The notes: generated from the letters alone by a model not told the origin. A stretch of 62,734 bases of DNA, filler included, from Candidatus Babelota bacterium (GCA_017999075.1; 8 parts of 8 records of this genome joined end to end with filler, not necessarily neighbours in it), one strand, 5' to 3'. Positions 25,463 through 59,492 are shown, counted from the whole stretch's first letter. Made by a program: numbers and translations.

Positions 25463-25498
25463 GAAATACGTTAAAAAACACAAAAATTGACTTTAAGA

Positions 25499-37880: not shown

Positions 37881-37895
37881 TTTCATAATTATTAT

Positions 37896-40723: not shown

Positions 40724-40867
40724 ATATTATGTGTTAATGTCTGTTATTATTTTTTTCGGGTTTATACNNNNNNNNNNNNNNNNNNNNNNNNNNNNNNNNN
40801 NNNNNNNNNNNTTAATTAATTAANNNNNNNNNNNNNNNNNNNNNNNNNNNNNNNNNNNNNNNNNNNN

Positions 40868-42403: not shown

Positions 42404-42407
42404 AAAA

Positions 42408-43142: not shown

Positions 43143-43145
43143 AAA

Positions 43146-44012: not shown

Positions 44013-44055
44013 AAATCGGTAATGATTAAGTAATTTTTATAATTTAAAGTTTACA

Positions 44056-44085
44056 ATTATAGCGTATTATCTTATAATTTGTCAA
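44056..44085 (-). promoter_or_regulatory. sigma70-like promoter
   Basis: TTGACA-N18-TATAAT upstream of ATG 44012. Confidence 0.5.
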
Positions 44086-44227
44086 TATTTATTTCAAAAA
44101 ATAACATTGACAAAAGACAGAATATTGNNNNNNNNNNNNNNNNNNNNNNNNNNNNNNNNNNNNNNNNNNNNTTAATTAATTAANNNNNNNNNNNNNNNNN
44201 NNNNNNNNNNNNNNNNNNNNNNNNNNN

Positions 44228-45187: not shown

Positions 45188-45236
45188 TTTTTAATAAAAA
45201 AATTTTCATAAAATAATTAATTTTAATAATGGCAGA

Positions 45237-45971
45237 TTATATGGTTTTATACCATATTGTTGTATCCTTCATAATTTCGACGTTTTCACCGAAAATATCA
45301 TAAACAGCTTTTGATACTCCGCAGTGAATATTGGAGAATGTGTCATTTTCTAATATTTTCTCCAAATTTTGCCCTTTTACTAAATAATTAAGATCAGACC
45401 ATTTTTTTTCCATATCATGACCACATAATATTCCGCCTTTTTTAACTTTTGATTTTAAATTCAGAATATCTATTTTGCATGGTTCGTATCTATGGTCCCC
45501 ATCAATAAAAACCATATCGGCAATTCCATCTGCTAATAAATTGGAAAAAAATAGCGAATTTGATCGGATAGGTATTATATAATCTGTCAATTTATGTTCT
45601 TTTAGCGTATTAAGAAAAAAATCAAATATATCAATAGTTTCTGTTATTTTTTCATGATGTTCCACTCCCACATTTCCTTTCCAGGTATCAATACAAATCA
45701 ATTTACCATCATTTTTCTTTGCGACATTCCCGAGAACAATAGTTGATCCCAATCCAGACCATGAACCCACTTCAATTATTGTCATATTTTTTTTTGAGAT
45801 TGAATTAGACAATTTCGATAATGCCTCAGTTTCTTCAAAAGAAATTTCACTTCTTGGAACTCCTGATAAATTTTCTTTCTGATAATTTTTTTCATATTCT
45901 CTTTTTCTTAATTTTGAAAATTTTTTAGCATAATATTCAAAATTAAAAAATCGTGTTAAACTTTTCGACAT
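45237..45971 (-). CDS. Class I SAM-dependent methyltransferase (Methyltransf_24-like)
   Basis: EVGSWSG, IDTW, FIDGDHRY, GGILCGHD. Confidence 0.88.
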   Translation of the reverse strand: MSKSLTRFFNFEYYAKKFSKLRKREYEKNYQKENLSGVPRSEISFEETEALSKLSNSISKKNMTIIEVGSWSGLGSTIVLGNVAKKNDGKLICIDTWKGNVGVEHHEKITETIDIFDFFLNTLKEHKLTDYIIPIRSNSLFFSNLLADGIADMVFIDGDHRYEPCKIDILNLKSKVKKGGILCGHDMEKKWSDLNYLVKGQNLEKILENDTFSNIHCGVSKAVYDIFGENVEIMKDTTIWYKTI

Positions 45972-46054
45972 TAATTTCCTCCTAATTTTTCCCCATTATT
46001 TATATTTTATTATATAAATATATCTGATTACGGTCAAGGTGTTTATTGAATTAC

Positions 46055-47242
46055 TTACACTTTTATTTTAAATAAATCCAACACAAGTGTTTTAAAAATA
46101 TCAAAACCAGTATATCCATTTCTCAAAAGATATTTAAAAGTTTGAACCGCTAAACCTATTCTATATTTTTTTAAAGTTCTTCTTATAAATCTCGCAAAAA
46201 AAAACAATCTGCGTTTTTTAAAATAATCGCTTTCAAAAATTTCAATAGTTTTTTTTGATTGAATATTTTTTTCAAGTTTTTCAAACAAATCGATAATCAC
46301 ATTTTTTATATATATTTCGCTCTCATATTCTGTAATAGCGCGTTTATATGCATTTTCAGCTATTATTTCGCGTTTTCTATCATCTTCAAGATATTTTCTG
46401 ACTTTTTCAAGAAGTTCATCACAATCTTTAAAATAATCCACTTCGTTTCCTATTTCAAACACATATTTAAGTGTTGGAGCATATTCTGATAAACAGAACG
46501 ATTTTGTCAGAGCAATTTCAATAGGTCTTCCTTTATTCTGTTTTGCCCTGTTTATTGTTACAGGATCAAATTTTTCTATCCACGGAATAACCTGTATGGC
46601 AGTAAAATTCAAATTTATTTTTGATTTGTTGAATATTAAATTCATCTGTTCCATAGATACAGGCCCATTTTCTGAGCCTCGGCCAAACACATCAACTTTT
46701 ATACCATTTTTTTTCAAAAAATTTATATATTTCAGCCGTTCATCCCGTACTTCTCCGATAAAAGTAACGTCATATTCTTTTTTTACAGCAACAGGATGAT
46801 ATTCTTTTTTGCTGTATGAACTGAAATATAATACAGTTGGGATATCAAGTTTTTCATAATATGCTCTGCCCAAATAATCAGTAACAATTACAGCATCAGC
46901 TGTTTGCGAATAGTATTTAGTAAATGTCTGCTGCAGAAACTCTTCGTCAAAAAGCCAGAATACAATCCGGCAATTTTTCCGCAGTGAATTAAGAAACCTC
47001 GGAGAAATTTCAAAATTATTATCAAAAATAAAAATTAAAATTAAATCAATCTTATTTTGTTCAACAGTTTCAAATATTTTATTTTCTAATGAGATTGGTC
47101 CGAATTTTTTAAAATAATCCGAATAATTAATTTGGCAGGTATTATCGAAATATTTTTTTGTTTCATTTATATGAAAAAGAATATACTCAAAATCAAATTC
47201 ATATAAATAAAGACAATTTTTAAATTTGGTGTACTGTATCAT
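46055..47242 (-). CDS. CgeB-like glycosyltransferase (GT-B)
   Basis: DVTFIG, SKINLNF, KGRPIEI, REIIAENAYKR. Confidence 0.85.
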   Translation of the reverse strand: MIQYTKFKNCLYLYEFDFEYILFHINETKKYFDNTCQINYSDYFKKFGPISLENKIFETVEQNKIDLILIFIFDNNFEISPRFLNSLRKNCRIVFWLFDEEFLQQTFTKYYSQTADAVIVTDYLGRAYYEKLDIPTVLYFSSYSKKEYHPVAVKKEYDVTFIGEVRDERLKYINFLKKNGIKVDVFGRGSENGPVSMEQMNLIFNKSKINLNFTAIQVIPWIEKFDPVTINRAKQNKGRPIEIALTKSFCLSEYAPTLKYVFEIGNEVDYFKDCDELLEKVRKYLEDDRKREIIAENAYKRAITEYESEIYIKNVIIDLFEKLEKNIQSKKTIEIFESDYFKKRRLFFFARFIRRTLKKYRIGLAVQTFKYLLRNGYTGFDIFKTLVLDLFKIKV

Positions 47243-47243
47243 A

Positions 47244-47885
47244 TCAAATAAACCTTGCCGGATTACCCACTGCTTTTTTGTTGTCAGAAATATTTTTAAT
47301 TACTACTGTTCCTGCGCCTATAATACACCCTGAACCTATTGTAATGTCAGGAAGAATTACTGAGCCAATACCTATAAAAGTTTTTTCTTTTACTATTGCG
47401 CGGCCTCCTATTTTAACTCCCGGAGAAATAGTAACTCCTGTCTCTAACACAACATTATGATCTATAACAGCAGAATGATTTATTAAAACATAATCTTTTA
47501 TAACAGCGCCTGGAGCAACAACAGCATTTGCGCAAATTGATAAACCAACTCCAAGTTCAGATGTTCTTGAAACTATACTTCTGTTATCAATAATATTTAC
47601 AGGTTTGAAACCGAGTCTTATCAATTTATGAGCGCATTCTATTCTGAATGGACCATCGCCTGTCGCAATAATAAAATCAGATATATTGTTTTCTTTAAAA
47701 AAATCAAGTTTTTCAAACCCTCCCAACACAGGAATCCCATCATTTAATTTTCCGTGATAATTTTTATTATCATCTATAAATCCTGCAATTTCATAATCAT
47801 TATTGTTAAATATAGTATCTGCAACAACCCTCGGATGACCGTCCCAGCGTGCACCTACTATAAAAATTTTTTTTTTATCTTTCAT
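47244..47885 (-). CDS. NeuD/PglD-family sugar acetyltransferase
   Basis: Rossmann-like N-terminus, hexapeptide repeats, IDH, GAGTVV, VGNPAR. Confidence 0.92.
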   Translation of the reverse strand: MKDKKKIFIVGARWDGHPRVVADTIFNNNDYEIAGFIDDNKNYHGKLNDGIPVLGGFEKLDFFKENNISDFIIATGDGPFRIECAHKLIRLGFKPVNIIDNRSIVSRTSELGVGLSICANAVVAPGAVIKDYVLINHSAVIDHNVVLETGVTISPGVKIGGRAIVKEKTFIGIGSVILPDITIGSGCIIGAGTVVIKNISDNKKAVGNPARFI

Positions 47886-47903
47886 AATATTTAAATTAAA
47901 AAA

Positions 47904-48746
47904 TTAAGATTTCCTTTTTTCAAGATAATGTTTTGCAACTATATGATCGACAAATCCTATCTTAACTCCTGCCTCAGTCAATCTGCGCCACATATTTGCA
48001 TCGCCAGGTTCGTTTATCATCCACGAATACAAATTATACTTAAAAAATGATAATGCCGCATTATACATAATCGCCTGATGACATATTCTGCCCGCTTTTA
48101 ATGGGTATTCGCCAACTTTTTCCCAAACATCAGGTTTACGTTCCATCAAAGCTGCTCCATAAACAAATTCAAATTGTTCCTTTTTTGCCTTATTTAATAA
48201 AACTTCAATATGATCTGATGTGAACTCATCATCATCGTCTAAATGGCATAACCATTCGCCTTTAGACAATTCTATTCCTTTATTCATTGGTGGAATACCT
48301 GCAACACACCATCTGAAATGCATAATATCAGGATATAAATAAGCGCTGCGTTGAAGATTCAAAAAAGAAATCCGTTTGTCTCTGATTTTGTTAAGAGCCG
48401 CTTCTGTTCCGTCATCGCATCCGTCGCCTACTATAATCAATTCCCAATTTTTATATGTCTGATTCAAAACTGACGGAATGGTTCTTTCTGTTAATAACTG
48501 GCATTTATTATAAGTGGCAATTCTTATAGAAACCAGAGGTTCATCAAGTAGATAAGCATTATTATATTTTTCTGATTTTCTGATTTCTTCAATCTGATTT
48601 TTTACAAAATAGGTTTTTTCTATATTCTGATCCATCCAATATTTTATAATATGATTATGTCTGAACACATCTTCATTCAAAGGTTTAAGGTGATCCTTTA
48701 AAAAATACGCTAATAAATTGCCTATTGTTCTTCTTATAAATTTCAT
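47904..48746 (-). CDS. Glycosyltransferase family 2
   Basis: IATYN, SVLNQTY, VGDGCDD, LDDDD. Confidence 0.9.
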   Translation of the reverse strand: MKFIRRTIGNLLAYFLKDHLKPLNEDVFRHNHIIKYWMDQNIEKTYFVKNQIEEIRKSEKYNNAYLLDEPLVSIRIATYNKCQLLTERTIPSVLNQTYKNWELIIVGDGCDDGTEAALNKIRDKRISFLNLQRSAYLYPDIMHFRWCVAGIPPMNKGIELSKGEWLCHLDDDDEFTSDHIEVLLNKAKKEQFEFVYGAALMERKPDVWEKVGEYPLKAGRICHQAIMYNAALSFFKYNLYSWMINEPGDANMWRRLTEAGVKIGFVDHIVAKHYLEKRKS

Positions 48747-48750
48747 AGTC

Positions 48751-49869
48751 TTAAACTAATATCTTTCTGATTTTGCCGCAAATTAATTTTATCTGCTCAG
48801 CTTTTAAATCTCCGTACATAGGCAGACATAATATATTGTCTGCAACATAATTTGCAATCGGCAATTTTGAAGGATTAGCATTTTTGAGTTTTTTGTAAAA
48901 TTCATAATTACTGCACAATGGATAGAAATATTTTCTTGATAAAATATCATCTTTTTTTAACATATCATAAATATCATTACGCGTAATATTTTTTTTATTC
49001 TGCATTACTAAAACAGGAAAATAACTGTAATTATACGTTATATTTTCATTATTATAATCAGGTAATTTCAAACAATCTATTTTTTTTAGTTCGTCAATAT
49101 ATTTTTCGGCATTTTTTTTACGTTTATTTATTTCATTTCCTATCGAATCAAGTATTGATAACCCTATCCCGCATTGAAATTCGTTTAACTTTGCATTTGT
49201 TCCAACGCAAACTACTGATTCTTCATTGGTAATTCCAAAATTTTTAAGTTTCTCAAATTTTTCATATAAATTTTTATTTTTACAAATCAATGCCCCCCCT
49301 TCAAATGTATGAAAAATCTTTGTTGCATGAAAACTCAGCATATTCACATCTCCGAATTCAGTGATTGATTTACCGTTTATCTTTACGCCGAACGCATGCG
49401 CGGAATCATAAATTACTTTGAGATTATATTTTTTTGCAATTTCATTAATTTTTTTTAAATTACATGGTCTGCCGTAAACATGCACTGGACATATTGCAGA
49501 AGTATGTCTGGTTATATATTTTTCAATAAGATTTTCATCTATATTATAATCATCCATTTTAATATCGCAAAATACAGGCTTAAGATTTGAACGCATTATA
49601 GAATGTATGGTCGCAGGAAATGTAAATGGAGTTGTAATAACTTCTCCTTTTAATTCAAGTGCATTGTAAGCAATTTCCAAAGCAAGTGTACCGTTAGCAA
49701 ATAATGAAATATAATCAGCATTAAAAAAACTGCTCAATTTATTTGTTAAAGAATTATAATATGTTCCTTTATTTGTAAGCCACTTTGATTTCCATAAATC
49801 ATTTATTATTTTATTAACCTCTTTTTTAGACGGCAGAACCGGCTGAGTAATATATATTTTTTTATTCAT
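48751..49869 (-). CDS. DegT/DnrJ/EryC1/StrS sugar aminotransferase (VioA-like)
   Basis: NGTLAL, TTPFTF, YDSAHAFG, SFHATKIFHTFEGG, RKYFYP. Confidence 0.93.
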   Translation of the reverse strand: MNKKIYITQPVLPSKKEVNKIINDLWKSKWLTNKGTYYNSLTNKLSSFFNADYISLFANGTLALEIAYNALELKGEVITTPFTFPATIHSIMRSNLKPVFCDIKMDDYNIDENLIEKYITRHTSAICPVHVYGRPCNLKKINEIAKKYNLKVIYDSAHAFGVKINGKSITEFGDVNMLSFHATKIFHTFEGGALICKNKNLYEKFEKLKNFGITNEESVVCVGTNAKLNEFQCGIGLSILDSIGNEINKRKKNAEKYIDELKKIDCLKLPDYNNENITYNYSYFPVLVMQNKKNITRNDIYDMLKKDDILSRKYFYPLCSNYEFYKKLKNANPSKLPIANYVADNILCLPMYGDLKAEQIKLICGKIRKILV

Positions 49870-50020
49870 AAAAGTTTCCTGATAATCAAATTATAAAAAA
49901 TAATAATCAAAGATTAAAAACAACTCATATAAAATGCAATACTATTTTCATATTTGTTTATTTTTACAATTTCCGAATTACTGAATTTATCATATTCAAT
50001 TATTATATTATAGTAATAAA

Positions 50021-50899
50021 TTAAACCGATTGTCTGGCGCATATTTTTTTTAAAGCCTGAATCAATGACAGATAATAAACCCAATCAAATATTATCCATC
50101 TGGTACTCAACGATAAAATAATAAAAAAAATATGCAAATTCCACTTACTGAATTTTCTGATATTCAGCCAGAAAAAAAGAAATTTATTCCTTGTGGAAAT
50201 AATTTTCAATTTGTTCTGATTCTGTTTTTTCAAAGTCGAACTCGTCTGATGATAGACAACTGCTTTTGGTTCAAAAATTGTATCAAATCCTGATTTATTA
50301 AGTCTATAACCCAGATCAGTGTCTTCCCAGATATACGGAGAGTAAATTTCGTTATATCCTTTTAAATTCAATAAAACTGTTTTTCTTCCGAGAAAACAGC
50401 ATCCAAGGTTTGCCAGAACTTTTTTTGATGTTTTATCGGATTCATCGTACTCTGCATTTTTATATCTGAAAAATCCTCGTTTAAAATAGGGAATAATATA
50501 AGTGTTATAATGATCTATGTTATTAAAATTATCCGTATAATTTTTTATCAAACCCGCTACAGCTCCAGTTTTCTCAATTTCAAAATGAGGCATTGCATAT
50601 TTAAAAAAATCTTTATCAAAAGCAACATCACTGTTTACAATGCACAATATCTCATTTACAGCGCTGAAAATACCTGAATTGCATGCCGCTGAAAAACCTT
50701 TATTTTTAATATGTCTGATGATTTTTATTTCCGGATATGTTTGTTCTAAAAAATTCACGCTGTCATCTTTTGAGCAGTCGTCTACTATTATTATTTCATA
50801 ATTTTTATTTTCTGATAATGCTTTATATATATAAGGCAAATTTTTTTCCAATAAATTCCGGCCATTATAATTAGGGATTATTATGCTGATTGATGTCAT
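50021..50899 (-). CDS. Glycosyltransferase family 2
   Basis: IPNYNG, DDCSKD, NKGFS, NSD, WEDTDL. Confidence 0.92.
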   Translation of the reverse strand: MTSISIIIPNYNGRNLLEKNLPYIYKALSENKNYEIIIVDDCSKDDSVNFLEQTYPEIKIIRHIKNKGFSAACNSGIFSAVNEILCIVNSDVAFDKDFFKYAMPHFEIEKTGAVAGLIKNYTDNFNNIDHYNTYIIPYFKRGFFRYKNAEYDESDKTSKKVLANLGCCFLGRKTVLLNLKGYNEIYSPYIWEDTDLGYRLNKSGFDTIFEPKAVVYHQTSSTLKKQNQNKLKIISTRNKFLFFWLNIRKFSKWNLHIFFIILSLSTRWIIFDWVYYLSLIQALKKICARQSV

Positions 50900-50923
50900 A
50901 AATAAATTTTATTTTTAATTTTT

Positions 50924-51952
50924 TCAGGTTATATCAAATTTCTTTATCTTTTCCAGTTCTTCTACTGTCTTATTAAAAACAGCATCCACTGTAATTTCAG
51001 ACATGGAAAAATGAAAATGTCTTTTCGAAATATATGCAGGACTGTATCTTATAACATTAGATGCCATAAGTATTCCAAGAGTGGGAACACCATACGCAAT
51101 TGCAATGTGCCGTATTCCTGTATCATTTCCAATAAAATACAGTGATTTTCTAAGATATCCGGCAACATCTTCAAGAGGTCCGGCAATAATAATTTTATCA
51201 AGATTTCTGCAATTATTTTTAAAATCAGTTTCGATTTCTTTTTCCAGAGGACCTATTGGGATGACAATTTTAATGTCAGGATATTGGTTTATAAGTTTAT
51301 CAGCAAGTTCAGCGTAATTTTTTATAGGCCAATTTTTTGTCGGCATAGCAGAACCTATTGCAAAAGTAACAAATGGACCAGCATCTTTAATTTCATGTTC
51401 AGGCATAAAAAAATCCAATGGATCGCCATTTATCTCGAATGCTCTTAATAAATCAAGAAACGCATCAGATTCGAATTTATATCCGGAACGGTTAATGGCA
51501 GCGTCATAACAAAACCTTTCAAATCCCCTGTGGTTAAACCCGACTTTCATTGTTGCCGGAATAATTGCGGATAAAATCATACTTCTGGTTGATTCTGTAA
51601 TGTCAAATAAAAAATCCTGTTTTTCAAATTTTCTAAATTTAATAATCTGAGTTATATCTTCTTTCAACCCTTTTCTGCGAGGAATAATAATAAAATCATC
51701 TACAAGCTTTTCTGAAATCAATTTATTGGTAGAACATAAAAACGTAATCCTGGCAGAAGGAAAATATTTTCTTAATGTCCGGAAAAATGGAACCGTAAGT
51801 ATAGTGTCTCCAAGTCCGCCAAACTTGATAACACATATTTTTTTTATTTCATTCTCATTTATTATATTGAACTTCTTCCCGAAATTTTTACTTGTATAAT
51901 TACTCTTGTTATTATTATATTTTATTTGATATTTCATCTGATTCCTTATCAA
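50924..51952 (-). CDS. Glycosyltransferase family 9 (heptosyltransferase-like)
   Basis: GGLGDTIL, KNWP, GNDTGIRHIA. Confidence 0.92.
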   Translation of the reverse strand: MIRNQMKYQIKYNNNKSNYTSKNFGKKFNIINENEIKKICVIKFGGLGDTILTVPFFRTLRKYFPSARITFLCSTNKLISEKLVDDFIIIPRRKGLKEDITQIIKFRKFEKQDFLFDITESTRSMILSAIIPATMKVGFNHRGFERFCYDAAINRSGYKFESDAFLDLLRAFEINGDPLDFFMPEHEIKDAGPFVTFAIGSAMPTKNWPIKNYAELADKLINQYPDIKIVIPIGPLEKEIETDFKNNCRNLDKIIIAGPLEDVAGYLRKSLYFIGNDTGIRHIAIAYGVPTLGILMASNVIRYSPAYISKRHFHFSMSEITVDAVFNKTVEELEKIKKFDIT

Positions 51953-51956
51953 AAAA

Positions 51957-52949
51957 TTATTTATTATATGCTAAATGCTGACATTCTCTGCAAAACGGTA
52001 TAACCTTCAAATCAGATTCTAAAATTCCTTTTCTTATTTTTGAAGCATGACTTCCGTACCATAATTCTTTAAACGATTTTTCCAAAATATTTCCGAAGTT
52101 AAACTGCGAAGGAAACGGACGGGCGCAACATAATACCCAGTATCCATCCCATGTGATAAAAGGCTGTTTCCATAAAAATGAACATGGTTCTATTTTGGTT
52201 TCATTTCCCCAAATTGTTCTATCACGTTTTGTATGTCTTACTTTAACGCCGTTTTTTTCACCTATATTTATTGCTTCAAATAATTTTTTTTTAAATAATT
52301 CTTTATTTTTAATATGAAACTCTGGTTTATTCTCGTAAAACTGCTGTTCACCCAAAGTAACTTTTTTCACACCAAGTTTTGAAGCAGTCTCTACAAACTC
52401 AGGAGCCTCTTCAAAATTTTCATTCATCATCATAAAAGTTAATGTAAAATTATAATCAGGATTATATTGCCGGAAAAAACTTATGTTCTGAAAAATTTTA
52501 TCAAAAGGAATTACCGTTTTTCCAGATACTTTTCTATATGTTTCTTCTTTAACCGCATCTAAAGAAACTGTCAAATGGATATGTTTGTCAATTATTTGTT
52601 TAATATTTGTTTCATTTAACAAAGTTCCGTTTGTGGTAATAAATATTTTAACATTTTTTCTTTTTAAAAAATCAACCATTTTAAACAAGTCTTTATGTAA
52701 AAACGATTCGCCTGTACCGAATAATGAAATCGATTTTAAAAAAGGAAACTGTTCTATGATTTTTTCAAAATTTTCATAAGACATATACCCTGTCTTAAAT
52801 GAAGAACTATGCCTGTAACATTCAATACAATTTAAATTACAGGCGTTTGTAAGTTCTAACTGCAGTTTTTGAGGTTCATAATTAACCTTATCGGTTTTGC
52901 GTTTTCTCGCAACGTTAAACATCAAAGAATTATATATTTTTTTTAACAT
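51957..52949 (-). CDS. Radical SAM / SPASM-domain protein
   Basis: ELTNACNLNCIEC, GTGE, TTNG; C-terminal C..W....ITWDG...CC...C..C. Confidence 0.92.
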   Translation of the reverse strand: MLKKIYNSLMFNVARKRKTDKVNYEPQKLQLELTNACNLNCIECYRHSSSFKTGYMSYENFEKIIEQFPFLKSISLFGTGESFLHKDLFKMVDFLKRKNVKIFITTNGTLLNETNIKQIIDKHIHLTVSLDAVKEETYRKVSGKTVIPFDKIFQNISFFRQYNPDYNFTLTFMMMNENFEEAPEFVETASKLGVKKVTLGEQQFYENKPEFHIKNKELFKKKLFEAINIGEKNGVKVRHTKRDRTIWGNETKIEPCSFLWKQPFITWDGYWVLCCARPFPSQFNFGNILEKSFKELWYGSHASKIRKGILESDLKVIPFCRECQHLAYNK

Positions 52950-53063
52950 AATATTTTTATAATACTATTGTCAAATCAAATTATCAACTTTTTTTTATTT
53001 TGACTTTTTTATCAGAAAATTATATAAATTTAACTTTAATTTACAAATTTTGAAATTTAACTC

Positions 53064-54503
53064 ATGCTTTTTAATTCATTTGAATTCATTTTTATTTTTT
53101 TGCCGGTAGTTTTAACTGCATATTATCTGATTTCAAACCACCGGTCAAGGTTATGGCTGCTTTTAATATCAAGTTATTTTTTTTACGGATGGTGGAATTA
53201 TAAATTTTTGTCTCTCCTTTTATTAAGCACTTCTCTTGATTATTATTTGGGATTACTCATTTACAACACGCAATCAGAACAGAAAAGAAAAAAACTTCTA
53301 ATCTTATCTGTTATAACAAATCTGGGTATCCTTGGTTTTTTTAAATATTTTAATTTTTTCGTGGAGAATTTTTATACATTATCTTCGTTAATTAACAATG
53401 AATCATCAAGGACATTTTTTTTAGAAATTGTATTGCCTGTAGGAATATCTTTTTACACATTTCAATCAATGAGTTATACAATTGATGTGTATTATAAAAA
53501 AACTCAGCCGCACCGAGATTTTATGGCGTTCGCGAGTTATGTCGCGTTATTTCCGCAGCTTGTAGCAGGCCCAATTATCAGGCACAGCGATTTAGTTTAT
53601 CAGCTTGAAGATGCTTCCAGAGGAAAATGGAACGGTAATAACTTTGCGCGCGGATTGTTTTTTTTCGTTATCGGGTTATCAAAAAAAATTATAATCGCTG
53701 ATCATTTAGCGGGCGCTATTGATCCTGCTCTTGATAATCTTGACGCGGTTTCAACACTCGAATCATGGCTTTGCGCATTGGGATATACATTTCAGATATA
53801 CTTTGATTTTTCCGGATATTCTGATATGGCTATAGGTTTAGGATGGATGATGAATTTTCATTTTATCACTAATTTCAACTCTCCCTATAAATCAAAGTCA
53901 ATTACAGAATTCTGGCAGAGATGGCATATCAGTCTAAGCGCATGGCTTAAAGATTATCTTTATATCCCTCTTGGCGGAAACAGAAACGGATTATATAAAA
54001 CATACAGAAATTTATTCTTGACAATGCTTCTCGGCGGACTATGGCATGGAGCAAATTGGGTTTATGTAATCTGGGGCGCATATCACGGAATTTTACTTGC
54101 AATAGAACGGGCATTAGGATTTCACAAAAAAAATACAGAAATTCCGCCTACGAACAAAATTATTTTTTCTACTCTAAAAAAAAGAATCATAACATTTTTT
54201 TTAATAATAATAAGCTGGGTTTTTTTCAGATCTCCTGACATTTCATTCTCGTTTAACTGGTTTAAAAAATTATTTTCTCCTCCGTTCACATTTTCTCTTT
54301 ATCAATTTTCAAGCAGAGTCCGTGATAAATATTTTGCAGCGCTTGTTGTAAGCATACTGATATCTTTTCTTGTCAAAAACACTTCGGAACTTAATTTTGA
54401 AAATTATATGCATAAACGTTATGCTTTTTTATTAGGATTATTGTTATGTTTATGTCTTGTATTTTTCACTAAAAATTCTCCTTTTTTATATTTTCAATTT
54501 TAA
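53064..54503 (+). CDS. MBOAT family O-acyltransferase (AlgI/DltB-like)
   Basis: MLFNS, LPVGISFYTFQ, FPQLVAGPI, DFSGYSD, FWQRWHISL, GLWHGA. Confidence 0.95.
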   Translation: MLFNSFEFIFIFLPVVLTAYYLISNHRSRLWLLLISSYFFYGWWNYKFLSLLLLSTSLDYYLGLLIYNTQSEQKRKKLLILSVITNLGILGFFKYFNFFVENFYTLSSLINNESSRTFFLEIVLPVGISFYTFQSMSYTIDVYYKKTQPHRDFMAFASYVALFPQLVAGPIIRHSDLVYQLEDASRGKWNGNNFARGLFFFVIGLSKKIIIADHLAGAIDPALDNLDAVSTLESWLCALGYTFQIYFDFSGYSDMAIGLGWMMNFHFITNFNSPYKSKSITEFWQRWHISLSAWLKDYLYIPLGGNRNGLYKTYRNLFLTMLLGGLWHGANWVYVIWGAYHGILLAIERALGFHKKNTEIPPTNKIIFSTLKKRIITFFLIIISWVFFRSPDISFSFNWFKKLFSPPFTFSLYQFSSRVRDKYFAALVVSILISFLVKNTSELNFENYMHKRYAFLLGLLLCLCLVFFTKNSPFLYFQF

Positions 54504-54505
54504 TT

Positions 54506-55525
54506 ATGAATTCAAATAAATTTATACTGACTTTTTTCATAAGCTTTTTTGCGGGATTAGCAGCCGTTATTCTTTTTGTAACCTGGATTGATCCTGACAG
54601 AAACTTAAATTATCCCTGGAAAATTAATTTTATTTCAGATAGAAACGGACTTTATAAAAAATTTAATCTGTTAAAAAATCAAAACCGTTTTACAGACATA
54701 ATAATAGGTTCTTCAACATCGGAAGTTTTTATTCCTTATAATATTTCTGAAAAATTCGGAGTGTCTGCATTTTCAGCATCTTCTGCAGGAGCATCTGTTC
54801 CTGCCCGTTATATACTAATTAAAACAGCTATTGAAACACAACCAAATCTCAAAAGAATAATTTATGTGGCGGATCTTTTTGAATTTAATAATTTATTCAT
54901 TGAAAATAATTTATATTACCAAAATGAAATGATGGAATATTTACCGGATAATTTAAAAAAATTAATTGAACCCCCGAAAATTTACGATAGAATATACGAT
55001 TATATTTCACGGCTTACAATAAAAAAAGCATTCAAAACGTTTAAAGATTATCGGCAGTATAAAAAAGGAAATTATAAAAGCCATTATTTTGATGACGGTT
55101 CTACAACAGAATCTATGATTGAAATTGAAAATAAAAAAACTGAACCACTAAGCAGCAGGGTAAAAAGAATAGCAATGAATCACAAAGCATACAATGATAT
55201 AAAAAAACTTAATGAAAACACAAAAAAATTCTATTTTGAAATTGTAAATGAAATAAAAAAAAATAATAAAGAATTAATTATAATAATCCCTCCGTGGCAC
55301 CCTGAATTCCATGATTTTTTTAAAGGAAATTTTGTAAAAAATTTAATTTATAAAAAATGGGTCGAATTCATTAAATCTCTTGAAAATAATAATGTCAAAG
55401 TAATCGATTATAGCTATCCCGTATATTTAAATAAAAGTATTAATCAGGAAAATTATTATTGGAATGACGGCATTCATTTCAGTCAAAACACCGCTGAAAT
55501 AATAATTAACGAAATTTATAAATAA
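54506..55525 (+). CDS. SGNH-like partner of the MBOAT (AlgJ/DltD-like)
   Basis: N-terminal anchor, IIGSS and DGIH motifs; starts 2 nt after the MBOAT stop. Confidence 0.75.
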   Translation: MNSNKFILTFFISFFAGLAAVILFVTWIDPDRNLNYPWKINFISDRNGLYKKFNLLKNQNRFTDIIIGSSTSEVFIPYNISEKFGVSAFSASSAGASVPARYILIKTAIETQPNLKRIIYVADLFEFNNLFIENNLYYQNEMMEYLPDNLKKLIEPPKIYDRIYDYISRLTIKKAFKTFKDYRQYKKGNYKSHYFDDGSTTESMIEIENKKTEPLSSRVKRIAMNHKAYNDIKKLNENTKKFYFEIVNEIKKNNKELIIIIPPWHPEFHDFFKGNFVKNLIYKKWVEFIKSLENNNVKVIDYSYPVYLNKSINQENYYWNDGIHFSQNTAEIIINEIYK

Positions 55526-55656
55526 ATTTATGGGGTTTTGTTTTTATCTAATAATTCTTCAAATATAAGCAGATTTATAAAAGATTAAAAATGACTTTTG
55601 ACTATACGGCACTTTATAGGCCTTTAAGAACTTATCTTTAAAAGATATCATTGTTT

Positions 55657-56697
55657 TTATATTTCAATTTTAAATGCAGCCCAGCTGTAAGGTGATGCAT
55701 TGGTTTTAATATAATGCTGCTGAGCGCGCAGAAGCGCAGTTGCAGGAGAGATATCTTTTTCGGGTAAATTCAATAATGTATAAAATGTTCTTATAAGCGG
55801 TTGCGTATATTTATCGCTTATATCCCATAATGTAGAAAGCGCTGATTTGGCGCCTGCTTTTAAAAAAGCTGATGAAATAGAACTGTTTGAATTGAAGCAG
55901 TCTGAAACGCCGGATTTGCAGGTTGCCAGGACAGCAAGTTCAAGATTTTTCAAATTCATTTTTTCAATTTCAGATGTTCTTAGTTTAGCAAAATTACCGT
56001 GTTCATCCTTTAATAAAATATATGATAAATCATAGTCCTTATTATCCAAAAAAGAATGGCAGGATATATGCAGTATCGAATAAAATTTTATAATTCTTTT
56101 CAGGATATCCTTATGCGTCCATTCGGTTCGGTAAAGGTTGCCGTTAGAAAACAAATTTTTAATTTTAAAACCTTCATAATCGCTGTATTTTAATTCACTG
56201 CTGCTGTTCGTGAATATAAGCGGGCGCTTTTCTTTTTTTAGAATATAATGCTTGTTTGAAATAATTTTTAATTTAACATAATTTGATAAATAAGCAATTG
56301 TTAAACGAGGCCAGCGTCTGATAAAATATTTTCCTTCATCATCAATAAGCGCGCAGAATGGCAAATTATTTAAGATTTCACCGGTTTTGATATAAAGATA
56401 AGAATTACCGTCTATAATTGATTCAAGTGGTTTTATCAGAATATTATATACCTCATTTGAAAACCATTTAAATGTTTTTATCTGAGGGTAATTTTCTGAT
56501 GCTCCGCAGGAACAAGTATTTATTATAATTTTATTTATTGCAATAACCATTCTATTAAGTTTATCTATGGGAAGAGGAATTGTTATTTTATCATTTTTAT
56601 TTTTGGTATTATACGAAACAATTAAATTGTCATAATTTTCCTGAAAATTAAGAACAATAGTTTTTGGCGGCAGATTAGTAAAAACTGTTTCTGGCAT
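55657..56697 (-). CDS. Stand-alone CHAT (caspase-like) protease domain protein
   Basis: YNILIKPL, LNNLPFCAL, ILHISCHS (catalytic His), LAVLATCKSG (catalytic Cys), AFLKAGA..LSTLWDISD, PYSWAAF. Confidence 0.88.
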   Translation of the reverse strand: MPETVFTNLPPKTIVLNFQENYDNLIVSYNTKNKNDKITIPLPIDKLNRMVIAINKIIINTCSCGASENYPQIKTFKWFSNEVYNILIKPLESIIDGNSYLYIKTGEILNNLPFCALIDDEGKYFIRRWPRLTIAYLSNYVKLKIISNKHYILKKEKRPLIFTNSSSELKYSDYEGFKIKNLFSNGNLYRTEWTHKDILKRIIKFYSILHISCHSFLDNKDYDLSYILLKDEHGNFAKLRTSEIEKMNLKNLELAVLATCKSGVSDCFNSNSSISSAFLKAGAKSALSTLWDISDKYTQPLIRTFYTLLNLPEKDISPATALLRAQQHYIKTNASPYSWAAFKIEI

Positions 56698-56701
56698 TTT
56701 G

Positions 56702-57973
56702 TTATTCCTCTGATATATCGCAGAGTTTTTTTATATATTCAATATCAACCGAAAAATAATCAGCTATTTTTTTTTGCAAAGAACTATCCGGAATTTTAAC
56801 GCCGCTCAGAAGTTCAGCAAGTTCAAGAATGTCAATTCCGACCTTATTTGCAAATTCAGTTTTATCGATTGATTCTTTTTCTATCATAAACATAAGAAAA
56901 TATGAAAAACAAAAAAACATAAATTCTGATGACAAGCTATTTCTGCAATTTAGCAGCGCGCTTAAAACAAGCAGCAAACGCTTTTCAGCATTTTTTTCAT
57001 TTACTGATCTGTTTTTAACAAATTTAAAAGGATTTTTTGTCAAATGAATATATTTATCTAAATACTCTATAGTTTCGGCTGCAGTTAATTTTTCAGATTT
57101 TTCAGACTTGATTTTTTTCCGCAGCATACCTGAATGCATTATATGCTTCAATCCTGAATTTATATGTTCCAATATTTCGTCTTCAGAAATATTATATTTT
57201 TCAGAAATTTGGCTGTAATCGCAGAATGGTTGAAAAAAATGGTCATTAATTATGCTTTGAGTTAGCTGATCTTTTATTGAGCGGATATCTGTTTTATTTA
57301 ATGTTATGCTGATATCGGACAATGCATTTTCAAATAAATCAAAGGTATAATCTGTAAATGGTCCATAAGTTTCTATAAAAATATTTTTTATCTCATCTAT
57401 TGCGCGGGCAATATCGCTCTTTACTGTATTTAAGTTCCTGCCTGTAATTTCAGCAATCTCGCGTTCAGATAATTCCAATGAAATTCTGAGGAATAATGCA
57501 AATTTGCTGTTTTCATTTTTTATATTCCGCAACGAGTATAATAAAGTTTTTATTAAATCGCGCTTTAATATATGTGGTTCTGAAATATCTTTTTCCGGAG
57601 GCAAAATATTTTCCAAATCACGCTCGCCATAATCTTCAGAATAAAAGTCGTTAATGGAAATAAAATTAATTTTTTCTCCTTTTATCTTTTTAGTTTGACT
57701 CTTTATAAAACTTAAAATTGTATTCCTTAGTATGCAGGAAATATATGTTTCTATTTTCGCTTTTTCAGGATTATATGTAGAAAGCGATTTGAAAAATTTT
57801 ATCAGAGTTTGCTGTATTAAATCATCTTTGTCATTTTGCGCTGCAGTATATAAACTGCCGGCTATACCAAAAAAATTTTCATCAAGATAATTCAATAAAT
57901 CTTCAGCAATTGAATTTTTTAAAGATTCGGAGGGAGTTTGATTATAGCAAAATATTTGATGTGTTAAATTCAT
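56702..57973 (-). CDS. ECF-type sigma70 factor fused to an extra HTH and a C-terminal XRE HTH
   Basis: sigma2-like DDLIQQTLIKFFKSLSTYNPEKAKIETYISCILRN; sigma4-like LSEREIAEITGRNLNTVKSDIARA; XRE-like DKTEFANKVGIDILELAELLSGVKIPDSSLQKKIADYFSV. Confidence 0.8.
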   Translation of the reverse strand: MNLTHQIFCYNQTPSESLKNSIAEDLLNYLDENFFGIAGSLYTAAQNDKDDLIQQTLIKFFKSLSTYNPEKAKIETYISCILRNTILSFIKSQTKKIKGEKINFISINDFYSEDYGERDLENILPPEKDISEPHILKRDLIKTLLYSLRNIKNENSKFALFLRISLELSEREIAEITGRNLNTVKSDIARAIDEIKNIFIETYGPFTDYTFDLFENALSDISITLNKTDIRSIKDQLTQSIINDHFFQPFCDYSQISEKYNISEDEILEHINSGLKHIMHSGMLRKKIKSEKSEKLTAAETIEYLDKYIHLTKNPFKFVKNRSVNEKNAEKRLLLVLSALLNCRNSLSSEFMFFCFSYFLMFMIEKESIDKTEFANKVGIDILELAELLSGVKIPDSSLQKKIADYFSVDIEYIKKLCDISEE

Positions 57974-58028
57974 GAAAATTACAAAATATCTGTTACACTA
58001 ATGTTTTAAAACAATTTAATTTTAATAA

Positions 58029-58925
58029 TCAAAAAATATGTTTATTTTTAAAAGTTTTAGAAATTAAATTGCTTTTATATGAAGTTCCTCCTAAATAATA
58101 TGCCCCAATAGCGGTTTCAGAAATTTTATTATCAATATTCTTTGAATTATTATCAATCCAACTTTGTTGGCAGTCACCTAAAAGTAAAAGCGGTTTTGAT
58201 AATATTTCATAATTATCCAAATTGCTAATTTTTTTTAATTCATCAGATAGCAAATTTAATTTCTTTTTTATTTCAAATAATTCTTTATAATATCCCAATA
58301 ATTCCTCGGAGTATTTCTTTATAAAATTTGAATATTGCTTTAACTGAATACTAATTTCTGCATTAAATAGTCGCGCATCTCCAATTCTTTTCACTTCTAC
58401 AAATACAATTTTTTTAGATTGCGTATCGATTCTAATTAAATCTATTCTAATGGTAGAATTTTCAAAAGGATATTCAAATTCAGAGTCAATAAAATAAGGA
58501 TCGTTTTCAACAAAGGAATATTGTATTGATTTTTCTGAATCGGGTGTATTGAAAAGAGCAATTCTTTTTTTTAAAAATTTTAAATCTTCGCGAGAAAAAT
58601 TATTAAGTTCCAATATTTTACAATTTTTTTGATCAAAGGAAATTTTATCATCAGTAATTTTATAAAGTATATAAGGATTTTTTAGTTCACATTTCAAAGG
58701 AATGTACTCATAATGAATTTTTCCGTGAAATAGATTTTTTGAAAATTTTAAACTTGTAATTATTGCGCCACCTTTATAATATACATCAATAGAATTATCC
58801 TTCCTAATTTCAATAATAATTTCCTTATCATTTTTTAAGACATCCCACCAAATAGGAGGATTTTTTGCTAATTTTTCAAACAACTTATGATTTTTATCTA
58901 AAAATGAAAAATTCATAGTTTCCAT
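58029..58925 (-). CDS. Putative PD-(D/E)XK nuclease
   Basis: DSEFEY...RIDLIRID...IVFVEVKR...QLKQY; AAGGTG RBS. Confidence 0.7.
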   Translation of the reverse strand: METMNFSFLDKNHKLFEKLAKNPPIWWDVLKNDKEIIIEIRKDNSIDVYYKGGAIITSLKFSKNLFHGKIHYEYIPLKCELKNPYILYKITDDKISFDQKNCKILELNNFSREDLKFLKKRIALFNTPDSEKSIQYSFVENDPYFIDSEFEYPFENSTIRIDLIRIDTQSKKIVFVEVKRIGDARLFNAEISIQLKQYSNFIKKYSEELLGYYKELFEIKKKLNLLSDELKKISNLDNYEILSKPLLLLGDCQQSWIDNNSKNIDNKISETAIGAYYLGGTSYKSNLISKTFKNKHIF

Positions 58926-59018
58926 ATATCACCTTTTATAATTAAAATTTTAGTATACAATATAATTTTTAAAAAATTATATATATGAATATAAAAAAAC
59001 CAAATAAAATCTAATTTC

Positions 59019-59392
59019 TTAATTTTCGGCAAAAATTCCACGAAAATCAATTTCCTTAAACATATCCGGCGCGAAAGTATGCACAGGAATAAGCTGTTTG
59101 GGTTTCATAGCATTTATAAACGCGCTCAGTGTTTCCCGTGTGGCGTGGCCGCTGTGATGAATTTTCAAAATATCAATATTTTGACCAGCAAGATAATTCT
59201 TGAATTTATCAGATAAATATATATCGCACATTGAATAAATCAATCTCCGCTTTTTGCCTGACGATATTCTATTAAGTATCCAGAACTCTTTATCTTCGTG
59301 AACAATCATACAAACGTTATTGCCCATATCCCGGACTTTATCGAGTTTTATACTATTTTGAAAACATTTATTTATAAAATTATAATTATTAT
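59019..59392 (-). CDS. C-terminal part of an MBL-fold beta-CASP (RNase J-like) hydrolase, truncated by contig end
   Basis: IYSM, IHHSGHA, PKQLIPVHT; frame is open upstream of ATG 59327 up to the gap. Confidence 0.8.
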
Positions 59393-59492
59393 NNNNNNNN
59401 NNNNNNNNNNNNNNNNNNNNNNNNNNNNNNNNNNNNTTAATTAATTAANNNNNNNNNNNNNNNNNNNNNNNNNNNNNNNNNNNNNNNNNNNN

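Follow-up and report, generated by a model that had tools for sequence, protein, structure and literature searches.

In a genome of a Candidatus Babelota bacterium, the gene for an ECF sigma factor with a helix-turn-helix (HTH) extension at its C-terminus is directly followed by a gene for a CHAT protease. Together, the sigma fusion and the CHAT form a rare but conserved two-gene unit. We put at about an even chance the reading that the CHAT protein controls the sigma factor after translation, the two genes making up one regulatory unit that would work as a protease-operated switch.

The sigma factor fusion and its CHAT neighbour

The window, by which we mean the whole stretch of 62,734 nucleotides that was analysed, is composed of 8 contigs with runs of N between them. 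Both genes lie within the contig at 44228..59392, and contigs from two other studies span the sigma/CHAT junction with 0 differences and reproduce the TPR-less CHAT. Because the pair is found within one contig and is bridged by these other contigs, it is not an assembly artefact. The features of the locus are listed below.

58029..58925, minus strand: 298-aa PD-(D/E)xK nuclease-fold protein, upstream neighbour (AlphaFold2, VIA-align; context only)
56702..57973, minus strand: ECF sigma fusion gene, 423 aa (ORF, Pfam, NCBIfam, family alignment, AlphaFold2)
57692..57850, minus strand: Sigma-70 region 2, residues 42-94 (Pfam PF04542, Sigma70_r2, E 1e-10)
57365..57577, minus strand: Sigma-70 region 4, residues 133-203 (Pfam PF08281, Sigma70_r4_2, at 159-192, E 3.5e-6)
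57131..57352, minus strand: third helical, sigma4-like HTH domain, residues 208-281 (AlphaFold2 pLDDT 78-95)
56924..57118, minus strand: linker, predicted disordered, residues 286-350, with the Arg322 codon AGA at 57008..57010 (AlphaFold2, alignment)
56708..56923, minus strand: C-terminal XRE-fold HTH, residues 351-422 (Foldseek, Atlas structure rows)
56698..56710, minus strand: coupling region, with GAGGA at 56706..56710, TAA at 56702..56704 and a 4-nt spacer (read directly)
55657..56697, minus strand: TPR-less CHAT protease gene, 346 aa (ORF, Pfam CHAT)
56452..56562, minus strand: CHAT residues 46-82, helical start of the CHAT module and predicted XRE contact surface (complex prediction)
56056..56058 and 55918..55920, minus strand: codons of CHAT His214 and Cys260, respectively, within 55657..56697

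The two open reading frames, their 4-nt spacing and the GAGGA motif in the last sigma codons had been given in an initial annotation of this DNA and are exact on the sequence, the junction reading GAG GAA TAA caaa ATG. The same annotation had reported that no anti-sigma gene lies nearby, and none was seen in a Pfam scan of the 6 neighbouring ORFs. A scan for consensus promoters was uninformative in this AT-rich DNA (24 promoter-like sites vs 14.7 +/- 10 in shuffles). Upstream, on the same strand and 55 nt from the sigma start, lies the gene for a 298-aa protein modelled by AlphaFold2 at pLDDT 92.5. Its residues about 127-298 match restriction-endonuclease-fold nucleases (VIA-align, Z 7.6-8.8), D162, E177 and K179 are invariant among 34 sequences, and PADLOC gives a weak PDC-S11 match. 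This neighbour was considered as an obligate third component and rejected, as its family (78 clusters) is far commoner than that of the sigma fusion and the other loci have different neighbours.

The N-terminal part of the fusion carries the two regions that define an ECF (group 4) sigma factor, sigma2 and sigma4, as had been claimed, and no region 3 match was seen. Both Pfam matches exceed their cut-offs, NCBIfam TIGR02937 reaches 59 bits (cut-off 42.9), and the region 4 domain is modelled at pLDDT 81-95. The family alignment comprises 25-29 full-length relatives of the sigma fusion. Residue D51 of region 2 is kept in 23 of 25 family sequences, and the family profile retrieves the PDB structures of RpoE, SigW and AlgU with E-values of about 1e-25.

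The C-terminal extension is less conspicuous at the sequence level. The second sigma4-like HTH proposed in the annotation is weak by sequence, with no stretch of the third domain passing in Pfam and HTH_36 at 244-272 scoring E 3.5e-3. It is nevertheless backed by the AlphaFold2 domain, by the sigma paralogue encoded in the same genome, whose third domain matches Sigma70_r4 at 231-259 (E 4e-5, 23.5 bits vs a cut-off of 24.1), and by weak TIGR02937 region-4 matches in relatives. The top Foldseek match of the fusion model is 9n9q_C, a dCas12f-associated RpoE chain from the PDB, and the match of the family profile to this chain extends through the third domain. The terminal XRE HTH is also below the Pfam cut-offs (HTH_19, PF12844, 19.3 bits vs 30.2; HTH_3, PF01381, 15.7 vs 23), and here it is the predicted fold that speaks for the claim: Foldseek aligns the domain with HigA and with the N-terminal domain of CapH over 62-68 columns (TM by target 0.72-0.82, rmsd 1.1-1.4 A), and Atlas structure rows agree on an XRE fold of the sigma C-terminus. 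The alignments behind the models are shallow, with 25 and 6 rows, and the monomer model has a pTM of 0.40. As a lead only, stand-alone proteins combining Sigma70_r4 and HTH_3 appear in the ESM Atlas with a feature match of 0.86-0.88, which is under 0.9.

The 346-aa partner matches the Pfam CHAT domain (PF12770) at residues 81-343 with an E-value of 1.8e-36, covering profile positions 5-285 of 289. It retains the His/Cys dyad, as had been noticed earlier, and all 8 aligned CHATs of this two-gene module (module CHATs) have the same H210, H214 and C260, W78 being kept in 5 of 6 aligned module CHATs as judged by eye. Insofar as sequence can tell, the invariant dyad and the near-full coverage of the profile count for catalytic competence of the window CHAT. 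This protein has no hydrophobic segment (maximum Kyte-Doolittle 19-residue mean 1.06), and module CHATs are cytoplasmic to judge from their sequences. The absence of a TPR region was also read correctly: the window CHAT begins where the CHAT module of its TPR-bearing relatives begins, and it shares 31% identity with the C-terminal module of the 900-aa paralogue. The stand-alone, TPR-less form that the annotation had described is not, however, how the family as a whole is built. The other 9 partners have 677-900 aa, with Pfam TPR matches in 7 of the 9, and the TPR-less CHAT of the window is the exception, a shortened variant of the family. With no sensor domain to receive an input signal, the window copy counts against the switch reading and may be in decay.

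An N-terminally decayed CHAT had been named in the annotation as a finding that would tell against it, and the shortened window copy touches on this point. Taken to its end, the argument would make the window pair a decaying, non-functional duplicate that has lost the TPR sensor and the sigma tail, the working pair being the one on the other contig. It would fit with the window CHAT being the sole short one among 10 partners, with a window sigma that lacks the second Arg motif and the C-terminal tail carried by most relatives, and with the full pair present in the same genome. We consider it rather improbable, however, since both ORFs are intact, translational coupling and dyad are kept, and the CHAT match extends from one end of its profile to the other. 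In addition, the TPR loss is a clean deletion that ends at a domain boundary, near-identical DNA with the same junction occurs in the contigs from two other studies, and the predicted interface described below falls within the retained parts.

Recurrence of the pair across genomes

Full-length relatives of the sigma fusion were found at 13 loci, of which 11 are assessable. A CHAT gene is the next gene downstream in 10 of these 11, so the co-occurrence of homologues on which the annotation had staked its reading is borne out. The loci are distributed among the window genome (2 loci), 4 Elusimicrobiota genomes, 2-3 other genomes and 2 metagenome contigs. In the window genome, the second pair lies on another contig and consists of the sigma paralogue and a full-length CHAT (900 aa). 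Measured between sigma stop and CHAT start, the spacing ranges from -143 to +94 nt, and the genes overlap in 6 of 10 loci. The sigma family is rare, with about 18 full-length clusters among the best 150 matches in a library of 1.84 billion representatives; full-length matches occur in 4 of 401 Elusimicrobiota genomes sampled and in 3 of 400 other genomes. Because of this rarity, a repeated CHAT neighbour is unlikely to be due to chance. The proposition that the adjacency is meaningless, two unrelated genes lying side by side, has a very low probability in our estimation. It could draw on L079, where the sigma fusion has no CHAT neighbour, but it is at odds with a downstream CHAT recurring in distant lineages with overlapping or tightly spaced genes, and with a complex prediction that is positive while its controls are clean.

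Word-based homologue searches with the sigma fusion and the CHAT returned the query only, being too insensitive for diverged, AT-rich proteins. An alignment restricted to the C-terminal part gave no matches in metagenome contigs, and a further alignment gave none in viral contigs, hence no evidence of a phage-borne module. Neither the same-genus genome G001 nor the same-family genome G002 yielded the fusion, whose distribution is patchy. Sigma and CHAT distances are correlated in a Mantel test that includes the near-identical L081/L082 pair (r 0.89, p 0.005), falling to r 0.29 (p 0.12) without L082. Co-divergence is not used as support here, because it is significant only through this close pair.

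Upstream of several sigma genes, housekeeping-like promoters were recognized by eye, such as TTGCAT-17-TATAAT (L076) and TTGATT-17-TATAAT (L005), which would fit constitutive synthesis with control after translation. No ECF-type promoter motif shared among the loci was found. Several loci have defence-type neighbours: PDC-S11 in L005 and L077, a DrmC-like PLD and PDC-S36 in L077, PD_DExK in L013, and PDC-S37/Hhe in L082. At three loci, the module adjoins dnaB and an orthologous AAA+ gene. The AAA+/DnaB neighbours (L013, L076, L078, L091) look like inherited synteny and were set aside as independent evidence. PADLOC-DB 2.0 gave no real match for the window sigma fusion or CHAT, and no system model matched; for the module CHATs of other loci it gave nothing or a weak BovA match (E about 1e-4).

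A predicted docking interface and a conserved linker arginine

Complex prediction, which had been put forward as a check, supports binding between the sigma fusion and the CHAT through the XRE domain. The ipSAE values were 0.69, 0.71 and 0.73 (median 0.71), against 0.00 for the best of 3 controls. Among solved complexes, 116 of 157 attain the ipSAE mark used, and among mismatched pairs 2 of 215 do so, counts that are rough because the alignments were our own. At least 40% of contacts are common to the runs, with a partner pLDDT of at least 78. The confident predicted interface joins sigma residues 357-392, in the XRE domain, to CHAT residues 46-82, the N-terminal helices. It occupies the HTH face of the XRE domain, which points to a docking handle more than to the DNA tether that the annotation had offered as one role of the extension. 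None of the confident contacts in the model brings Arg322 into the CHAT active site.

The linker lies between confident domains, with pLDDT below 50 at 286-296 and 303-350. The annotation had singled out its FVKNRSV stretch as a possible cleavage region, and this stretch indeed holds the sole conserved residue of an otherwise variable linker. Of the 29 aligned sequences, 25 have R in the Arg322 column (FVKNR/S), 2 have K there and the other 2 a gap, which makes R or K in all 27 that have a residue. The surrounding columns are poorly conserved (only 3-13 of 23), and T precedes the column in 15 of 27 sequences as counted by eye. The linker segment is absent from the P0010 and L076 sigma factors, and the site is therefore not universal; the L076 sigma nonetheless has a TPR-CHAT partner. 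To our knowledge, P1 specificity is not established for CHAT proteases, and Csx29 reportedly cleaves behind Met or Leu rather than Arg. For metacaspases, cleavage behind Arg or Lys is stated in a preprint (bioRxiv 10.1101/2023.06.23.546230).

In the protease-operated switch that we favour, the sigma factor would be synthesized with its ECF part (sigma2-sigma4) joined to an appendage at the C-terminus, itself composed of the sigma4-like helical domain, the disordered linker and the XRE-fold HTH. Judging from the complex model, the main role of the XRE domain would be that of a docking handle, by which the sigma is kept attached to the N-terminal helices of the CHAT module. Once active, the protease would cut the linker after the conserved basic residue, Arg322 in FVKNR/S, and the second Arg motif that stands behind the HTH in most relatives may also be cut. 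In most relatives, the activating input would probably come through the N-terminal TPR region. Cleavage would free a sigma able to redirect RNA polymerase, the nuclease genes of the surrounding defence-type islands being candidate targets. As for the TPR-less window copy, it could be constitutively competent, be regulated by other means, or rely on the second, full-length pair of this genome.

The same predicted contact between the XRE HTH and the CHAT N-terminal helices could be put to another use. The CHAT would then be a toxic or abortive-infection effector masked by the XRE domain in an antitoxin-like manner, with the sigma and HTH regions regulating the operon and the sigma not being the key substrate. 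The resemblance of the XRE domain to HigA antitoxins and to the CapH repressor agrees with such an arrangement, as do the defence-type surroundings of L005, L077, L013 and L082 and the patchy distribution, with the fusion not found in G001 and G002. We nevertheless regard it as unlikely. A complete ECF sigma with conserved core-binding positions such as D51 would be an expensive antitoxin, the single conserved linker Arg would be left unexplained, the module CHATs give no more than weak BovA in PADLOC, and the three loci beside dnaB and the orthologous AAA+ gene are not an obvious defence island.

Binding could also suffice by itself if the (TPR-)CHAT were a non-proteolytic anti-sigma that sequesters the sigma via its C-terminal handle and releases it on TPR ligand binding. 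The predicted XRE-CHAT binding is compatible with this, and so is the precedent of DdvA, an anti-sigma of the TPR-CHAT type for which mutation of the dyad made no difference from wild type in the conditions that were tried (PMC11506125). It is distinctly improbable for the present module, whose dyad is invariant in 8 of 8 CHATs, arguing for retained catalysis, and whose conserved linker Arg would again have no explanation. Besides, anti-sigma factors normally cover sigma2 or sigma4, whereas the predicted contacts here are with the XRE domain.

Relation to known protease-controlled sigma factors

As a general idea, an ECF sigma gated by a protease has precedents in Craspase, CalpL-T-S, DdvA-DdvS and the ECF54 context; of those against which it was tested, the present module belongs to none. 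The annotation had described the present architecture as unrecognized, and this part stands: no description of a fused sigma-HTH-XRE architecture with a CHAT was found in the literature searched, which took in the first part of the supplement to the ECF classification; groups treated further on in that supplement could include it.

One close counterpart is the type III-E CRISPR system Craspase (Csx29, Csx30, Csx31 and CASP-sigma), in which a TPR-CHAT protease is likewise coupled to an ECF-type sigma factor, whose release is presumed to depend on proteolysis. In this system, Csx29 is reported to cleave Csx30, and CASP-sigma is thereby freed (PMC10028731). Type III-E TPR-CHAT/Csx29 chains are the solved CHAT sequences nearest to module CHATs (E about 1e-10). 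However, no Cas7-11/gRAMP and no CRISPR context occur at any module locus examined. Csx30 is a separate protein, whereas here the putative substrate part shares one polypeptide with the sigma; Csx29 is a TPR-CHAT, whereas the window CHAT has no TPR. The C-terminal halves of the sigma fusions gave no match to Csx30, the NCBIfam models CAS_III-E_sigma and Csx29 reach 25.2 bits vs 100 and 19 vs 300, respectively, and PADLOC, including its Cas-associated models, gave no Cas match for four proteins of the window locus.

The DdvA-DdvS system of Myxococcus xanthus also pairs an ECF sigma with a TPR-CHAT in a defence setting, and a CHAT cut in a flexible linker has been proposed for it (PMC11506125). 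DdvA combines a zinc anti-sigma domain at its N-terminus with a transmembrane helix and a TPR-CHAT in the periplasm. Module CHATs have no anti-sigma domain, and it is the sigma that bears the extra domains here. The window CHAT, whose 346 aa start with the CHAT module, leaves no room for such domains and has no hydrophobic segment. In systems of type III CRISPR and CBASS, CalpL has been described as cutting the CalpS-bound CalpT, and PCaspase as cutting a putative sigma factor (bioRxiv 10.1101/2023.06.23.546230). CalpL-T-S, SAVED-CHAT, PCaspase and PCc-sigma share with the switch proposed here the principle of a signal-activated protease that cleaves an anti-sigma or sigma and reprogrammes transcription. 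CalpL and the SAVED-CHAT cascade respond to cyclic oligonucleotides via SAVED, whereas no SAVED, cyclase or Cas10 is nearby here; the sensor of the module, where present, is a TPR region, and its sigma is a fusion.

Among ECF groups, ECF54 is described as having no anti-sigma and a conserved CHAT/TPR neighbour, with proteolytic regulation proposed (PMC8999054; PMC7826278 supplement). It is confined to Actinobacteria and has a carboxypeptidase-regulatory-like protein at +1, a subtilase at +2/-1, a CHAT at +3/-2 and no described extension. The present module is set apart by its context, with the CHAT at +1, no subtilase and a 220-aa sigma extension. In ECF41, ECF42, ECF238 and others, a fused C-terminal domain replaces the anti-sigma as regulator (PMC7826278). 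The ECF extensions described are SnoaL-like, TPR, Cys-rich or transmembrane, none of them described with a CHAT partner, and an extension composed of a sigma4-like and an XRE HTH was not found in the parts of the ECF classification examined. For the dCas12f-associated sigmaE, a preprint assigns a protein-docking role to the HTH-like C-terminal domain (bioRxiv 10.1101/2025.06.10.658880).

Protease-gated sigma factors are an only recently recognized output arm of bacterial immunity. In Craspase, CalpL-T-S, PCaspase and DdvA-DdvS, the protease, the substrate and the sigma are separate, and activation proceeds via CRISPR, a cyclic nucleotide or a membrane anti-sigma. The present family places a putative substrate and a sigma in one chain beside the protease, with one conserved residue as the candidate for cleavage and an interface predicted for docking. 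A bolder version, possible though doubtful in our judgement, is that of a self-contained immune or stress module acting without CRISPR or a nucleotide second messenger, in which the cytoplasmic TPR-CHAT would sense an invader or damage cue directly, hold the sigma by its XRE handle and cut after the Arg, so that the freed sigma would activate genes for nuclease effectors in the defence island around it. If true, the module would stand to the Craspase/CASP-sigma arm as its ancestor or an analogue, in a minimal form of two genes that unites substrate and sigma in one polypeptide, and the TPR-less copy of the window would be a sensor-free variant, possibly constitutively primed or trans-activated. 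The pair offers a very small and easily tested system for the substrate choice of CHAT proteases, sensing by TPR-CHATs and the targets of such sigma factors, and it adds a sigma4-like domain with an XRE HTH to the kinds of C-terminal ECF extension. Should the module turn out to serve ordinary housekeeping regulation, it would nonetheless represent a novel way of controlling ECF factors, in phyla that have received little study.

Anatomy of the sigma fusion and its gene pair

The module consists of an ECF sigma factor with a C-terminal extension (the sigma fusion) and a CHAT protease. They are encoded by two ORFs that lie exactly at the positions, and have exactly the sizes, given in the initial annotation:

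56702..57973, minus strand: sigma fusion gene, ORF of 423 aa
55657..56697, minus strand: CHAT gene, ORF of 346 aa

The junction reads GAG GAA TAA caaa ATG, with a stop-to-start gap of 4 nt, and GAGGA thus falls within the last sigma codons. The window comprises eight MAG contigs; each of the seven joins (within 3280..59492) consists of two 44-N runs separated by 12 bases. Since it is several contigs and not one genome stretch, gene neighbourhoods cannot be read across the joins. The pair lies entirely within one contig (44228..59392), and contigs of two other studies span its junction with 0 differences, so the short CHAT form is not an assembly artefact. Another window contig carries a single ORF of 3951 aa (25604..37459, plus strand). 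Neither the sigma fusion nor the CHAT has a convincing hydrophobic segment, and both should therefore be cytoplasmic.

Pfam places Sigma70_r2 at residues 42-94 (E 1e-10) and Sigma70_r4_2 at residues 159-192 (E 3.5e-6), and TIGR02937 reaches 59 bits, above its cut-off of 42.9; judged by these profiles, the 423-aa protein is an ECF sigma factor. The AlphaFold2 model (mean pLDDT 69, pTM 0.40), for which the family alignment supplied 25 rows, contains four helical domains, all confident, and two disordered segments:

about residues 40-99: sigma2 domain
residues 96-132: disordered segment, the usual sigma2-sigma4 linker
residues 133-203: sigma4 domain
residues 208-281: third helical domain
residues 286-350: disordered linker before the C-terminal HTH
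residues 351-422: C-terminal HTH

Homology matches mark the third domain as sigma4-like: the paralogue in the second pair of this genome (L005) has a Sigma70_r4 match at 231-259 (E 4e-5), other relatives show weak region-4 matches, and the match of the family profile to the dCas12f-associated RpoE chain 9n9q_C runs on through this domain. The HTH-like C-terminal domain of that RpoE is a protein-docking domain, according to its description (bioRxiv 10.1101/2025.06.10.658880). The last domain of the fusion gives XRE-family scores under the Pfam thresholds and can be overlaid on HigA and the N-terminal domain of CapH at 1.1-1.4 A; Atlas structure rows agree with an XRE-like fold. The ESM Atlas also contains clusters of stand-alone proteins of ~200 aa that combine Sigma70_r4 and HTH_3, many of them from phage (scores 0.86-0.88, a lead only), and the C-terminal appendage (residues 200-423, window 56705..57376) may have arisen from a free-standing protein of that type.

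Distribution of the pair and the short CHAT of the window

Word-based homologue searches returned the query itself and no relatives. An exhaustive HMMER search of 1.84 billion representatives, with a profile built from the two paralogues, gave 1665 matches at E up to 0.001. The best 150 of these were mostly ordinary ECF sigmas of ~190 aa, and included about 18 full-length relatives (419-494 aa, from sigma2 through the C-terminal HTH). Full-length fusions were found in:

the window genome: a second pair on another contig (L005)
one Elusimicrobia MAG: locus L013
an Elusimicrobiota sample: 4 of 401 genomes, 6 loci
a sample across other lineages: 3 of 400 genomes
metagenome contigs: 2 loci (L081, L082)

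The distribution is patchy, since the fusion was not found in a same-genus genome (97% complete) or a same-family genome (86% complete).

Thirteen sigma fusion loci were compared, of which 11 are assessable, the contig ending beside the sigma gene in L078 and L086. A CHAT gene comes next downstream in 10 of the 11, at -143 to +94 nt from the sigma stop, and 6 of these pairs have overlapping genes. The proposed coupling of sigma and CHAT thus holds as that of a conserved module. Chance adjacency is highly improbable given this recurrence. The co-divergence of the two proteins was not significant once a near-identical pair was left out (r 0.29, p 0.12). The remaining locus, L079, has no CHAT neighbour; a complete pair occurs elsewhere in the same genome (L077), and its protease may serve the solo sigma in trans. 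This solo fusion (L079:3974-5221, contig C91 of G374) sits between MatE and HI0933-like genes. In the window genome's second pair (L005:3922-7954, contig C277 of G000), a 445-aa fusion, 31% identical, overlaps its TPR-CHAT by 8 nt.

The window CHAT is a full domain (PF12770, E 1.8e-36, profile positions 5-285 of 289), and its dyad is intact, with H210, H214 and C260 invariant across the 8 module CHATs aligned. Only this CHAT has 346 aa: the other nine partners measure 900 (L005), 677, 699, 788, 770, 749, 742, 726 and 715 aa, and seven of them have Pfam TPR matches. A stand-alone, TPR-less CHAT is thus not the design of the family. Since the very first residues of the window protein already match the CHAT-module start of the long forms, its TPR region has been removed cleanly, not broken. 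The window pair might be a decaying duplicate, having lost this region in a genome that retains a TPR-bearing pair; with a full domain and an intact dyad, this is doubtful.

Predicted docking and the linker arginine

The complex was predicted from the full sigma fusion (alignment A5) and the CHAT (alignment A6), alongside controls. It reached ipSAE values of 0.69, 0.71 and 0.73 (median 0.71), compared with 0.00 for the best of 3 controls. Among solved complexes 116 of 157 attain that mark, and among mismatched pairs 2 of 215 do, counts that are rough here because our own alignments were used. Contact agreement between runs was at least 40% and partner pLDDT at least 78. The confident interface pairs sigma residues 357-392, corresponding to XRE helices 1-3 and including the helix that normally reads DNA, with CHAT residues 46-82, the helices that start the CHAT module and carry the conserved W78. 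Sigma positions 357, 385 and 389 are within the 30 best-conserved family columns. The model supports binding of the fusion to CHAT through this predicted interface. No solved complex of this kind is known to us, and it seems unlikely that the prediction merely reproduces a deposited structure. Neither linker Arg322 nor the active site figures in the confident contacts. The CHAT could alternatively be a non-proteolytic anti-sigma; with the dyad invariant and the linker residue conserved, that reading is improbable.

When 29 family members are aligned with L-INS-i, a single column stands out as conserved in the disordered linker, which otherwise varies: it has a gap in two members and R in 25 or K in 2 of the other 27, and by eye a T precedes it in 15 of these 27. 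The window protein has R322 here, within FVKNR|S, in the stretch that the initial annotation had named as an example of where a cut might fall. Both gapped members are without the whole linker segment, and one still has a TPR-CHAT partner. A second Arg, R285, lies where the third domain ends (R in 24 of 29). In most members another Arg motif (mostly K/x-T-R) comes ~10-15 residues after the HTH and leads into an amphipathic tail; by eye in the alignment, this tail is absent from the window protein, the alignment member P0003 and the sigmas of L077 and L079. A lone conserved basic residue in a disordered linker beside a caspase-family protease has the look to be expected of a P1 site, which makes it a candidate. 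The reported P1 residues of Csx29 are Met or Leu. Metacaspases cleave behind Arg or Lys (bioRxiv 10.1101/2023.06.23.546230).

The reading we favour, at even odds, is that the module is a protease-operated sigma switch. The XRE-fold domain would dock the sigma on its CHAT, as predicted; the CHAT, activated through its TPR region in most members, would cut the linker after the conserved Arg, lifting a presumed inhibitory effect of the appendage, and the released sigma would redirect RNA polymerase to its targets. Against the switch count the failure of the model to bring Arg322 to the active site, the sensor-less window CHAT, the linker-less members, the CHAT-less L079 and the non-significant co-divergence without the near-identical pair. 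The CHAT could also be an effector with the sigma fusion as its keeper, which would leave the conserved Arg without an explanation; this is unlikely. What the initial annotation observed is confirmed, and its interpretation is supported in part: the module and the candidate site hold up well, and its TPR-less CHAT proves an exception in a TPR-CHAT family.

Gene neighbourhoods and known systems

The gene next upstream of the pair is:

58029..58925, minus strand: 298-aa protein, 55 nt upstream of the sigma gene, same strand

Its unnamed family, well populated and well conserved (78 clusters, ~33-53% identity), has no Pfam match. In structure comparison of its confident model (pLDDT 92.5), the C-terminal half has the PD-(D/E)xK nuclease fold, which dominates the match list at middling Z values (Upx 8.8, XisH-like 2okf 8.3, NucS 8.0, Shedu SduA 7.6). 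D162, E177 and K179 do not vary across 34 sequences, and there is a weak PDC-S11 match. The protein is probably an uncharacterised nuclease and possibly defence-related. A 102-aa ORF (59019..59327, minus strand) has only an RMMBL (beta-CASP C-terminal) motif and lies 65 nt from the contig end, and is thus probably the 3' portion of a gene truncated in assembly; L076 also has a complete MBL/beta-CASP gene near its module (1500-2798). Downstream of the window module are convergent envelope/glycan genes (MBOAT, SGNH-like, radical SAM, glycosyltransferases), and downstream in L080 (8850-11000) a PEGA/carboxypeptidase-regulatory-like protein, reminiscent of ECF54 neighbours.

PDC-S11 proteins occur beside the paralogous pair L005 (E 2e-26) and in L077 (E 8e-21), which also has a DrmC-like PLD nuclease and a PDC-S36/NOV_C protein; DUF6602, which matches PADLOC PD_DExK, is immediately 3' of the CHAT in L013, and L082 has a PDC-S37/Hhe helicase. 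With Fic/Doc and S-adenosylmethionine-lyase-family genes upstream beside PDC-S11, L005 looks like a defence island or mobile element. The place of DUF6602 is taken in L081 (4883-5443) and L082 (6517-7071) by a shared 184-186-aa protein, 8-14 nt past the TPR-CHAT, with no Pfam or PADLOC match and a D..EVK motif (by eye) reminiscent of PD-(D/E)xK nucleases. No module protein matches a PADLOC model, beyond weak BovA matches of some CHATs. In L013, L076, L078 and L091 the module is beside dnaB and/or an orthologous AAA+ ATPase (L013:2934-5925, L076:2901-5922, L078:4997-6472, L091:5583-7022), which looks like inherited synteny, so the association with defence is only suggestive; these neighbours could instead be a third component. 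The ATPase is of AAA_2 type (~480-565 aa, pairwise E 1e-56 to 1e-83).

Protease-controlled sigma factors are already known as a concept in four settings: Csx29/Csx30/CASP-sigma (PMC10028731); CalpL/CalpT/CalpS and SAVED-CHAT/PCaspase/PCc-sigma (bioRxiv 10.1101/2023.06.23.546230); DdvA-DdvS of Myxococcus xanthus, in which a transmembrane TPR-CHAT anti-sigma partners an ECF sigma (PMC11506125); and ECF54, for which proteolytic control was proposed from CHAT/TPR neighbours (PMC8999054; PMC7826278 supplementary). The module belongs to none of the known systems tested. Its NCBIfam type III-E scores are far under the cut-offs, it has no Cas, SAVED or cyclase context, and its proteins have no anti-sigma domain or membrane helix. 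Its gene order differs from that of ECF54, and ECF54, unlike the module sigma, is described without an extension. Full-text searches of the literature on CHAT with ECF/sigma turned up no account of a CHAT-partnered sigma2-sigma4-HTH-XRE fusion; CHAT is nowhere mentioned in the main text of the ECF reclassification, and its supplementary material was covered for the earlier groups only (PMC7826278). Tentatively, the pair may represent a self-contained caspase-to-sigma immune module, in which substrate and sigma factor would be fused in one chain.
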